Source: a virus (lineage: Duplodnaviria > Heunggongvirae > Uroviricota > Caudoviricetes). Taken from it: a stretch of DNA of 7,174 nt. This document shows positions 1,608-3,756 of the stretch, in pieces. A program made the translations under genes and the position numbers. Within the stretch, counting starts at the first letter, position 1; every line of letters starts with the position of its first letter. The DNA is taken from the IMG/VR virus record IMGVR_UViG_3300028453_000023; one strand, 5' to 3'. A model generated the notes under the pieces. The model was not told the origin of the DNA and did not search any database. It saw nothing but the letters and a program-made list of their open reading frames with translations.

Positions 1608-1774
1608 TCGCCATGCTCCGCATCACGTTTCTTTTTCTGACCTGCCGGACGTCGCACCGTGATGTACTCCGCCTTTCCCAGGCGAACCAGCACCTCCGCA
1701 CACGGCTGTGCCACATCACGGATATCCCCGGCCCGGGCATCATGCGTGCCCTGCAGATATCGGATCTTTGCCAT
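1553..1774 (-). CDS. Hypothetical small head-module protein (73 aa)
   Basis: ORF fills most of the 211-nt interval between the capsid stop and the portal start, and overlaps the portal start by 55 nt. Its ATG (1772-1774) sits 8 nt downstream of a hairpin that is itself directly preceded by a perfect AAGGAGG. No recognisable family. Confidence 0.4.
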   Translation of the reverse strand: MAKIRYLQGTHDARAGDIRDVAQPCAEVLVRLGKAEYITVRRPAGQKKKRDAEHGECGTFYGEPEKTRNQDVT

Positions 1775-1811
1775 AACTTGTTACGGGAGGCACACGCCTC
1801 CCGTCCTCCTT
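1772..1811 (-). promoter_or_regulatory. Structured translation-initiation region: AAGGAGG (1805-1811), 9-bp GC-rich hairpin (1783-1804, loop GUGU), 8-nt spacer, AUG (1772-1774)
   Basis: Read directly from the sequence. Arms 1783-1791 and 1796-1804 are perfectly complementary. The SD is 30 nt from the AUG in linear sequence but about 8 nt if the hairpin folds. Confidence 0.45.
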
Positions 1812-1818
1812 ATCAGAC

Positions 1819-3756
1819 TCAGCCGCCGGACGCACTGCCATAGTTCACTCCGGTGATCACCGCCACCGCCGCGGTACGGCGACGACGCCAGTTGATCCAG
1901 CGCTCCGCACGGATGGCCACGCTGCCTGTCTGGAACATGGAAACCAGCTCCACCGGCGACGGCGTGGTACTGTCGCCGGTCGGCTCAGACTGCATTTCCA
2001 GTGATGCCTCGCGGGACATATCCACTGCCACGCCGCCGTCATCCGCCAGATAAATATCCGGGGCATTCACCAGCACCAGCTGGTCACCCACGTACTGGGA
2101 GACAATCACCGGCAGCCCCTGGAAGGAGCCACCCAGCAGGGTCATGTCCGGGTATTCTTTCTGACCCAGCGCATTTTTACGCATGGACAGCGCCAGAGCA
2201 TTGGTGCTGGACATCAGCCAGACCGCACCGGTGGGCTGCAGGTTTGCTGCCACAAACTGTCCAAACGCCGCCTCTGCATCCGCATCCGGGTTACCGCTTG
2301 ATGCCGTGCCCTTCACATCATGGGTGATGGACGCCGGGGAGACATCTGCCACCGCCGCTTTTTTCGGGTCCACAAAGTCTGTATCCAGACGCGCCACCAC
2401 CGCTTCCGCCAGCGCATTACGGACCAGTGCATCAGCAGCCGGACTGGAAAAACGGATCAATTCTTCCGTCAGTACCGCAATGGCCGACACCTTAGCATGA
2501 CTGAAGGTGATGGATTCAAAATCAAACTTCGTCAGGGGTTTTGCCTTACCCTCACCCACCCAGCCGGCAGCACCGCCCGACACCTGGGCGTGCACACGGA
2601 TATTGAACGGCACCTGACGAAGTGCAGGGATCCCGCCCTGACCAAATCGCCCGATAATGGTCTGAGGACGCAGGTAATCAATAAAGTCCTGTGCGTATTC
2701 CTGATATTCAGACAGGCTGCCTGCCCACTGCGGATCCGTGGTGGTCCCCGCGCCCACTGCCGATTTCAGGACATGATGCAGACGACTGTCATCCGGATAC
2801 TGACGACGGGCCACTTCCAGGGCTTCAGAGCGGACACCTTTAGCCGCAGCCAGCGATTTGGCAAAACGTGCGAAACCAATCCCCTTATCCAGTTTCTGCT
2901 CCACACGGATCACCGGCGCAGAAGCCACCGCGGCCACATTCCCGTTACCGGCCTGTTTCACCGGCTGCGCCGTGGCGGCCTTACCGGCTTCCAGTTCACG
3001 CAGGCGCTTCAGGTGCGCATCCACCTGACGTATTTCCGCTGCGGTGTTGTCGTAATGCTCTTCCTCCTCCACATCCAGCGTGCGCCCTTCCTCTGCGGCT
3101 TTGGTCATGACCTCCTCAAGGGAGGCTGCCAGTGCTGCACGCTTGTTTTCAAAACTTTTAATCTGTTCGCCAATATTCATTATGGTCTTTTCCTTATGAA
3201 AAACGGTTGTTGACTGTGCCGCAGCGCCGGCAGAAGATGCGATTTTCACCACCGGTTTCCGGTTGCCGGACGCGGCAGAAAACTGGCGGTCGTAAGATTT
3301 AATGGTCCGGATGGTGCATTCCGCATTCGCGGGCACGGTGACGGCAGACACCTCCATCAGCTCCCAGCGCAGAAAATGCAGTCCGCCTCCGTCCAGAAAG
3401 GTGTATTCATGAGGACGGAAGCCCACGGACAGCCCCCTGACCAGCCCGGTCTTAATGGCCGCCCAGGCCTCATCCAGCCTGGCAGCCAGTTGCGATGGCA
3501 TATCCGGCACGGGCTTCGCCAGTGTTGCCGTGATTTCCAGCCCTTCGCTGACCCGGCGCACCGTACACTGCCCCACCGGGCGGGAATGGTCATGCTGCCA
3601 GAGAAACGGAATCGCACTGCCAAACTCCGCGCCCTCCGGCTCCAGGATGTCACCATCCCGATCCGGAGAAGGCGTTGACGCAATCCCGGTGATCACCCGC
3701 TCATCCTCACTGAAGGATTTCACCGTCAGCAGGGAGCAGGCCCGTTTAAGAGTCAC
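1819..3756 (-). CDS. Prohead protease (HK97 / peptidase S78 type) fused in frame to an HK97-fold major capsid protein with a coiled-coil delta/scaffold-like segment
   Basis: 645-codon ORF with a GTG start at 3754-3756 and AGGAGG 5 nt upstream. The N-terminal ~190 aa carry prohead-protease blocks (ITGIASTPSPDRDGDILEPEGAEF, FLWQHDHSRPVG, GLSVGF). From residue 193 (MNIGEQIKSFENKRAALAASLEEV...) the sequence is a charged coiled-coil followed by ~380 aa typical of HK97-type capsid proteins. Follows the terminase genes. Confidence 0.9.
   Translation of the reverse strand: MTLKRACSLLTVKSFSEDERVITGIASTPSPDRDGDILEPEGAEFGSAIPFLWQHDHSRPVGQCTVRRVSEGLEITATLAKPVPDMPSQLAARLDEAWAAIKTGLVRGLSVGFRPHEYTFLDGGGLHFLRWELMEVSAVTVPANAECTIRTIKSYDRQFSAASGNRKPVVKIASSAGAAAQSTTVFHKEKTIMNIGEQIKSFENKRAALAASLEEVMTKAAEEGRTLDVEEEEHYDNTAAEIRQVDAHLKRLRELEAGKAATAQPVKQAGNGNVAAVASAPVIRVEQKLDKGIGFARFAKSLAAAKGVRSEALEVARRQYPDDSRLHHVLKSAVGAGTTTDPQWAGSLSEYQEYAQDFIDYLRPQTIIGRFGQGGIPALRQVPFNIRVHAQVSGGAAGWVGEGKAKPLTKFDFESITFSHAKVSAIAVLTEELIRFSSPAADALVRNALAEAVVARLDTDFVDPKKAAVADVSPASITHDVKGTASSGNPDADAEAAFGQFVAANLQPTGAVWLMSSTNALALSMRKNALGQKEYPDMTLLGGSFQGLPVIVSQYVGDQLVLVNAPDIYLADDGGVAVDMSREASLEMQSEPTGDSTTPSPVELVSMFQTGSVAIRAERWINWRRRRTAAVAVITGVNYGSASGG

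Follow-up and report, generated by a model that had tools for sequence, protein, structure and literature searches.

A candidate split ribosome-binding site built around a hairpin behind the capsid gene of Stx-type Escherichia coli prophages

How could a ribosome reach the start codon of a small gene when its Shine-Dalgarno (SD) sequence stands far upstream, on the other side of a stable hairpin? This question is raised by the virus record IMGVR_UViG_3300028453_000023, a stretch of 7,174 nucleotides (nt) analyzed here at full length and hereafter called the window, which corresponds to the head-gene block of a long-tailed lambdoid Stx-type (Shiga-toxin-type) E. coli prophage whose head genes are located on the minus strand. 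In this block, the capsid gene is followed by a short untranslated junction, by a small open reading frame (ORF) of 73 codons and by the portal gene. From the comparison of this junction with its counterparts in numerous relatives, we consider it probable that translation of the small gene following the capsid starts at this junction from a split site, the two parts of which are bridged by a hairpin. It would thus be best described as a split ribosome-binding site organized around a terminator-derived hairpin, which may in addition protect the capsid mRNA.

Read along the minus strand, the junction is GGC UGA GUC UGA UAAGGAGG ACGGGAGGC GUGU GCCUCCCGU AACAAGUU AUG GCA AAG. The capsid gene, whose stop codon TGA is at positions 1821-1819, closes with four in-frame triplets of which three are stops (UGA GUC UGA UAA), TGA (1815-1813) and TAA (1812-1810) being back-ups and the latter overlapping the SD. 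In one natural variant (L062), CGA replaces the first of these stops, and termination would fall at the second. The SD, UAAGGAGG (1812-1805, minus strand), is an 8-nt complement to the 3' end of the 16S rRNA (duplex of -11.9 kcal/mol) and is located directly 5' of an RNA hairpin (1804-1783, minus strand) composed of a 5' arm (1804-1796), a 4-nt loop (GUGU, 1795-1792) and a 3' arm (1791-1783), with nine perfect pairs and a folding energy of -17.8 kcal/mol. A spacer of 8 nt (1782-1775, minus strand), containing neither an SD nor a U tract, then leads from the base of the hairpin to the AUG of the small ORF (1774-1772, minus strand); an earlier start is impossible because an in-frame UAA stands 6 nt upstream of this AUG. 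The sequence-only reading of this DNA had proposed that AAGGAGG is found 7 nt after the capsid stop and that a 9-base-pair (bp) GC-rich hairpin at 1783-1804 and then 8 nt separate it from the AUG of the 73-codon ORF. All these elements were verified, the motif lying at 1811-1805 on the minus strand and the stem being perfectly paired at the exact position. The distance between the SD and the AUG is 30 nt in the linear sequence and 8 nt with the hairpin folded out.

When a context of 181 nt is folded, the pairs of the stem reach probabilities of 0.92-1.0, and both the SD (unpaired 0.34-0.91) and the AUG (unpaired 0.63-0.70) are largely open. Regarding the statistics drawn from this lone sequence, they are weak and not convincingly above chance. 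The window contains no other perfect 9-bp hairpin with a loop of 3-8 nt, for a mean of 0.16 in shuffled sequences, and such a hairpin is present somewhere in 12.7% of the dinucleotide shuffles of the window; AAGGAGG occurs twice for 0.71 expected, and the fold of the 71-nt segment has a z-score of -1.87 with respect to shuffles. Across the window, the covariance models of Rfam 15 gave no match up to E = 1. The case for something other than chance therefore rests on conservation among relatives.

Relatives were collected by their capsid protein, with one genome per species (29 loci, 32-81% identity), and among viral contigs with the capsid of the window and three diverged capsids as queries, and contigs encoding distant homologues of the small ORF were added to the set. 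Altogether, 291 loci had a locatable capsid C-terminus and 281 of them the small ORF, yielding 88 distinct stop-to-AUG spacers. A GC-rich hairpin of 6-9 bp is found right after the capsid stop in all 88, and 85 of them present the same order, namely SD, hairpin, 6-11 nt and AUG. These 85 SD-first spacers come from E. coli, Enterobacter, Citrobacter, Kluyvera, Buttiauxella, Atlantibacter, Kosakonia, Phytobacter, Pantoea, Erwinia and metagenomes. None of them has an SD within the 11 nt preceding the AUG, where duplexes with the 16S tail reach -3.9 kcal/mol at best and +0.9 on average, and all of them have an SD-class site upstream of the hairpin (-8.1 kcal/mol or better, mean -10.9). The upstream SD is hence the sole SD-class site available to the small ORF, which supports the claim of the sequence-only reading that this SD is too far from the AUG on linear RNA and near-optimally placed, at 8 instead of 30 nt, once the RNA is folded.

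The geometry of the site is also retained. In 69 of the 88 spacers, the SD site with the best score directly adjoins the stem; in the remaining ones a G-rich arm of the stem outscores it, and by eye most of these keep GGAG, GAGGAGG or AAGGA upstream, the GGAG-like site being degenerate in a few spacers (e.g., L161). Among relatives, the end of the stem is followed by the AUG after 6-11 nt, with a mode of 7, and the linear distance from SD to AUG amounts to 22-31 nt. Ahead of the SD, the capsid stop is followed by 0 to about 20 nt of poorly conserved sequence, while GGAG is retained at the foot of the stem. In the zero-length case, the stop codon is itself part of the SD (UAAGGAG). This is the arrangement found in metagenomic members whose small protein is only 25-30% identical, with UAAGGAG, 2-4 nt, a stem of 7 bp, a loop of 4-6 nt, 7-9 nt and the AUG, the loop being UUCG in three of the four distinct sequences.

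In the outgroups the SD is found on the other side of the hairpin. Indeed, in Snodgrassella, in Marinobacter and in two of the three alpha- or other proteobacterial loci, the hairpin is followed by an ordinary SD and then by the AUG; this downstream SD reaches -5.9 to -9.5 kcal/mol in four lineages and only -2.9 in L025. No GGAG was found ahead of the hairpin in the outgroups having such a downstream SD (Snodgrassella, Marinobacter and most of the alpha- or other proteobacterial loci). Rouxiella and Serratia display a further layout, in which a U run and then a weak SD-like stretch stand between the hairpin and the AUG. The SD is thus located before or after the hairpin and never at both places, as expected if the small ORF is translated from the upstream SD. 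In Hydrocarboniphaga (L019 and L020), the gap has no hairpin, the next ORF starting 3 nt after the capsid stop and containing a 12-bp hairpin, so that the post-capsid hairpin is not universal in the wider family.

The hairpin itself is very probably a selected RNA structure. Between clades the stems are wholly different and each has its own complement, as exemplified by ACGGGAGGC, GCGGGAGGC, GGCGGGG, GCGGGGA, GAGGGGC, GGCGAC and GGGCCCG. Within the group formed by E. coli and the Enterobacter-like sequences, two of the ten pairs alternate between G-C and A-U with both partners changed, giving 14 such cells compared with 3.2 in column shuffles and none with a slid partner, and 95% of the cells are paired. 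In the Pantoea group, one pair switches from C-G to U-A, in a small alignment and not above the shuffle control. Compensatory changes are hence present at three pairs in total, with formal scores that are modest within such closely related groups. Pairs were counted per group because a MAFFT alignment of all clades shifted the 3' arm of Pantoea by one column. A covariance model derived from the alignment recovered no copies beyond the Enterobacter-like and E. coli ones, did not align the Pantoea group in register, and was not used for these counts. Loops are frequently GNRA or UUCG. Moreover, G.U wobbles on the mRNA strand correspond to A.C mismatches on the other strand, which indicates an RNA feature of the sense transcript.

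Several variants of the stem are worth describing for themselves. Among E. coli variants of type B (L043, L058, L087, L105 and L110), the 5' arm and the loop of some read GGGAGGUGA, which matches the anti-SD better (-14.1 kcal/mol) than the upstream SD does but lies hidden within the stem. Three variants have a G.G or G.A mismatch at the seventh pair, by which the stem is weakened to -11 to -14 kcal/mol. In an Enterobacter-like locus (L235), an insertion produces a larger two-tier structure of -24.6 kcal/mol, with the SD in front and the 7 nt behind retained.

We thus propose that, immediately behind the capsid stop, the late mRNA would fold into a highly stable hairpin of 9 bp, with UAAGGAGG at its 5' foot and the AUG 8 nt past its 3' foot. 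A 30S subunit paired to the SD on this folded RNA would have the AUG placed in its P site, whereas on unfolded RNA a spacing of 30 nt would be useless for initiation. To our knowledge, split ribosome-binding sites of this kind are known from very few genes, mainly genes 38 and 25 of phage T4. There, an intervening structure cuts the distance between SD and AUG, which falls from 22 to 5 nt in gene 38 and from 27 to 11 nt in gene 25. Mutations destabilizing the structure lower initiation, the split site is confirmed by reporter and dimethyl sulfate (DMS) data, and it is common only to close T-even relatives (PMC3014915).

The T4 gene 37-38 junction, which we read directly, is GCA UAA GGAG AGGGGC UUCG GCCCUU CUAAAU AUG and folds to an 8-bp stem. 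Its parts stand in the same order as those of the prophage junction, and the likeness to gene 38 suggested by the sequence-only reading is therefore borne out. Both junctions comprise the stop codon of a structural gene, an SD of the UAAGGAG type, a tetraloop-capped GC-rich hairpin of 8-9 bp, a short unpaired stretch and the AUG, and the spacing is shortened from 22 to 5 nt in T4 and from 30 to 8 nt here. The resemblance extends to the overlap of stop and SD and to the UUCG loop in Pantoea and metagenomic relatives (UAAGGAG-nn-GGCGGGG-UUCG-CCCCGCC-7 to 9 nt-AUG). However, phage, genes and sequence are unrelated, so that the likeness is one of convergence on a known mechanism and not of homology. 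Also unlike T4, the hairpin follows here a major capsid gene and is terminator-like in relatives, and while bridging has mutational support in T4, it is argued here from sequence comparison, which supports the view that the junction would be a further case of this known mechanism.

Three other systems are informative. T4 gene 25, compared through the same review, likewise has a hairpin shortening the distance from SD to AUG (27 to 11 nt) and a split site in close relatives where distant ones are conventional, but its residual spacing is 11 nt instead of 8 (PMC3014915). Rho-independent terminators and 3' stabilizing hairpins share with this junction a GC-rich hairpin just past the stop of the most highly expressed structural gene, as well as a U tract in relatives; they differ in that the copy of the window has no U tract and that its hairpin stands inside the initiation region of the next gene and not upstream of it. 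Finally, the split site of E. coli thrS (Sacerdot et al., as discussed in PMC3936740) is another case in which a hairpin lying between two single-stranded regions contacted by the ribosome stays folded and is tolerated; as described there, that hairpin parts an upstream single-stranded standby region from the region of the SD and AUG, and not the SD from the AUG, making thrS a looser analogue than the T4 cases.

Several points weigh against a split site at this locus. The SD is just 7 nt past the stop of a heavily translated gene, and would often be covered by ribosomes terminating there. As the relatives share ancestry, no more than two or three evolutionary events may account for the complementary placement of the SD. 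The bridged spacing varies from about 5 to 13 nt between clades, which is looser than a tight geometric constraint predicts. Most pairs of the stem are invariant within alignable groups, so that the formal signal of covariation is limited to 2 of 10 pairs in one group and 2 of 9 in the other, the latter not above the shuffle control. It is also conceivable that ribosomes re-initiate at the small ORF with no true contribution of the SD. Finally, in many relatives the purines of the SD can pair weakly (G.U and A-U) with the U-rich spacer and so extend the stem, and part of the conservation of GGAG could thereby serve a terminator and not the ribosome.

This last point leads to the most serious alternative, which we regard as unlikely, if far from negligible. 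According to it, the hairpin acts purely at the level of the transcript, as a leaky terminator, an attenuator or a barrier to 3'-exonucleases that raises the capsid mRNA over that of the downstream genes, GGAGG is not the SD of the small ORF, and the latter is translated weakly without an SD or by ribosomes that finish the capsid gene and re-initiate 47 nt downstream. The capsid protein is needed in large excess over the portal protein by virion stoichiometry, and a device of this sort would be in keeping with it. Terminator-like features are indeed widespread. With a U run defined as at least 5 U in the 8 nt after the stem, 18 of 50 Enterobacter-like variants, at least 14 of 21 Pantoea and Erwinia variants and one of three Rouxiella variants have one, and the terminator scan flagged the hairpins of L012 and L006. 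In the outgroups, the hairpin precedes an ordinary SD, and its origin is thus independent of bridging. The U tracts and terminator-like scores suggest that the hairpin came first and that a ribosome-binding site was built around it later.

The window version of the hairpin is not terminator-like. It was not flagged by the scan, its tail AACAAGUUAU is devoid of a U tract and does not correspond to an intrinsic terminator, and none of the 14 E. coli variants has a U run. An intrinsic terminator in the window itself was rejected on this ground. Besides, the late transcription of lambdoid Stx-type phages is presumably terminator-resistant owing to a Q-type antiterminator. The E. coli stem is at the same time the longest (9 bp versus 7). 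In our reading, the U tract decayed in the Stx-type lineage and the stem persisted, which speaks for a role of the latter besides termination. The E. coli SD cannot pair with AACAAGUU and is nevertheless a perfect 8-mer. An effect confined to the transcript leaves unexplained why an SD is found at the foot of the hairpin in all 85 spacers lacking one before the AUG and is absent where an ordinary SD exists. A literature search on terminators behind capsid genes returned nothing usable.

Both functions are nonetheless compatible and not mutually exclusive, and a role of the hairpin as a 3' stabilizer or 3'-exonuclease barrier for the capsid mRNA is plausible alongside bridging. The structure is a stable stem-loop just 3' of the capsid coding region, its stem beginning 17 nt past the first base of the capsid stop codon, which should be beyond the reach of a terminating ribosome given the ribosome footprint. 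An RNase III site was also considered and rejected, as such sites need roughly two helical turns of stem, a general rule by which a stem of 9 bp falls far short. The split ribosome-binding site would then have the following history. The hairpin would predate bridging, having begun as a terminator or attenuator behind a highly expressed capsid gene, and the SD of the next gene would have come to lie ahead of it. In the Stx-type E. coli lineage, with the U tract lost and the stem longer, the hairpin would most likely be a structural bridge and probably also a 3'-exonuclease barrier favoring the capsid part of the transcript.

The remaining alternatives fare far worse. A regulatory switch, in which the CCUCCC arm would mimic an anti-SD and sequester AAGGAGG with the GGGAGG arm as competitor, is suggested by the GGGAGG-like and CCUCCC-like arms of the E. 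coli lineage; it is very unlikely, as pairing of the SD with CCUCC yields -6.5 kcal/mol versus -18.9 for the hairpin in the same context, on which energetic ground we rejected it, and as the arms are GCGGGG and CCCCGC in most relatives, making the SD-like arm sequence lineage-specific. We give still less credit to a mini-ORF of four codons, GUG UGC CUC CCG UAA (1795-1781), which the SD would serve at a spacing of 9 nt to the GUG in the window and from which ribosomes, terminating at the UAA, would re-initiate at the AUG 6 nt on. It was rejected because the GUG of the loop is not conserved (GCGA or GAGA in E. coli type B, GAAA, GCGA or CUU in Enterobacter-like sequences and GAAA in Pantoea); furthermore, most relatives have no start codon 5-12 nt after the SD, and starting at the loop would need the melting of a stem of -17.8 kcal/mol. 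Equally hard to credit is a chance palindrome or a protein-binding site on DNA with no RNA role, since, despite the shuffle frequency given above and an AAGGAGG count that is not enriched, the hairpin is kept at the junction in 88 distinct spacers with differing stems and compensatory changes, and its G.U wobbles would be mismatches on the opposite DNA strand.

What, then, is the gene that this split site would serve? The small ORF (1774-1553, minus strand, 73 codons) belongs to PHROG 829, a family of unassigned function, and is represented by 97 distinct protein variants across Enterobacterales. It is named hypothetical in every naming source save for one evident mis-annotation, it is often uncalled or truncated in public records, its protein has no Pfam or NCBIfam match with E up to 10, and a literature search by protein accession gave no match. 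By its sequence conservation, we nonetheless take it to be a real gene. The median pairwise dN/dS (ratio of nonsynonymous to synonymous substitution rates) is 0.135 over 2975 pairs, and the N-terminal 38 residues are conserved (M.KIRYLQ.THD...GD.K.V.D.CA.VLV.LGKAEY), followed by a basic tail. The proposal of the sequence-only reading that the 73-codon ORF is real thus holds across genera for the conserved protein, which comprises only the first 55 codons or so, and not for the full length. Indeed, in relatives the ORF has 51-58 codons and its stop overlaps the portal start as TGATG or TAATG (e.g., L004, L010, L017, L026, L138 and L275), while in E. coli the ancestral stop was lost (GGCTGATG to GGCGAATG), giving a poorly conserved extension of 18 codons that overlaps the portal gene by 55 nt in another frame.

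As the small ORF of relatives stops on the portal start, the junction site probably also sets portal translation by coupling, so that portal translation is probably tuned through the initiation region of the small ORF. The portal gene (5' part at 1607-1, minus strand, with its ATG at 1607-1605 and running off the window) has its own GGAG at 1619-1616, 8 nt upstream of this ATG, and its N-terminus, MWN..R.K, is conserved in relatives. Initiation across the folded hairpin, stabilization of the capsid mRNA and coupling to the portal gene are all three functions that we infer.

In an AlphaFold2 model of the small protein, residues 1-40 are confident (pLDDT, the per-residue confidence score, of 85-90) and adopt a beta-beta-alpha-beta arrangement, and the basic C-terminal tail is disordered. 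In a Foldseek search of the PDB, the N-terminal rRNA-binding domain of ribosomal protein bL9 accounts for most of the top matches and for each of the best dozen, with a root-mean-square deviation of about 1 A over 40 residues, 25-32% identity and weak E-values of 0.08-1. The matches in BFVD are small uncharacterized phage proteins, and hhalign gave no significant sequence relation between the small protein and E. coli bL9. On the basis of this model, one may imagine that the small protein binds the hairpin and autoregulates its own translation and, by coupling, that of the portal, thereby setting the capsid-to-portal ratio, an idea that we judge improbable.

If the junction works as proposed, the split-site solution would be widespread, as this head module is found in Stx-type prophages of about a quarter of the complete E. 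coli genomes and in prophages of many other Enterobacterales. By megablast, 1252 of 5426 complete E. coli genomes contain the first 3.8 kb of the window at 90-99.7% identity, the median being four copies per genome. A further 93 phage records match, mostly Stx1a-, Stx2a- and Stx2c-converting phages including BP-4795, YYZ-2008, 2851 and 1717, and the annotations of matching phages and RefSeq E. coli agree on the gene order of capsid, hypothetical protein and portal. The relatives would moreover provide an evolutionary series leading from a terminator with an ordinary SD, through an SD ahead of a terminator hairpin, to the loss of the U tract, and a single hairpin would act on the capsid-to-portal ratio both through the transcript and through translation. 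Such starts would be misjudged by any gene finder or ribosome-binding-site calculator that relies on linear spacing.

The other genes of the window were called from the ORF listing together with Pfam and PHROG scans. The capsid gene (3756-1819, minus strand) starts with GTG and encodes a prohead protease/major capsid protein fusion of 645 amino acids (aa) matching Phage_capsid and Peptidase_S78 in Pfam and major head protein in PHROG (PHROG 617), and it is labelled major capsid protein in the annotation of BP-4795 and RefSeq E. coli. Upstream of it are encoded, on the same strand, an HNH endonuclease (6199-5834), the small terminase (5545-4982) and the large terminase (TerL, 4985-3820), the last being listed as two ORFs because 100 N of masked sequence (4440-4539) interrupt the gene. 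In contrast with the junction behind the capsid gene, the intergenic region between TerL and capsid (3757-3819, minus strand) has a conventional layout, with a short hairpin and U run (3795-3778, flagged terminator-like) and then AGGAGG 5 nt before the capsid GTG. The capsid gene is thus bracketed by hairpins on either side.

The portal gene, identified from RefSeq and BP-4795 annotation, is positioned after the capsid gene rather than before it and its frame is open for 535 codons up to the edge of the window. It is unusually long, with 861 aa in RefSeq E. coli and 1194-1237 aa called in metagenomic relatives, and in the BP-4795 record it is divided into two coding sequences both named portal. 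At the other end of the window, a gene of the DUF3950 (YlcI/YnfO) family is found on the opposite, plus strand (6181-6441), and a protein of 113 aa with a TonB C-terminal domain is encoded on the minus strand (6573-6914) between the lysis region and the HNH gene; both look like accessory prophage cargo.

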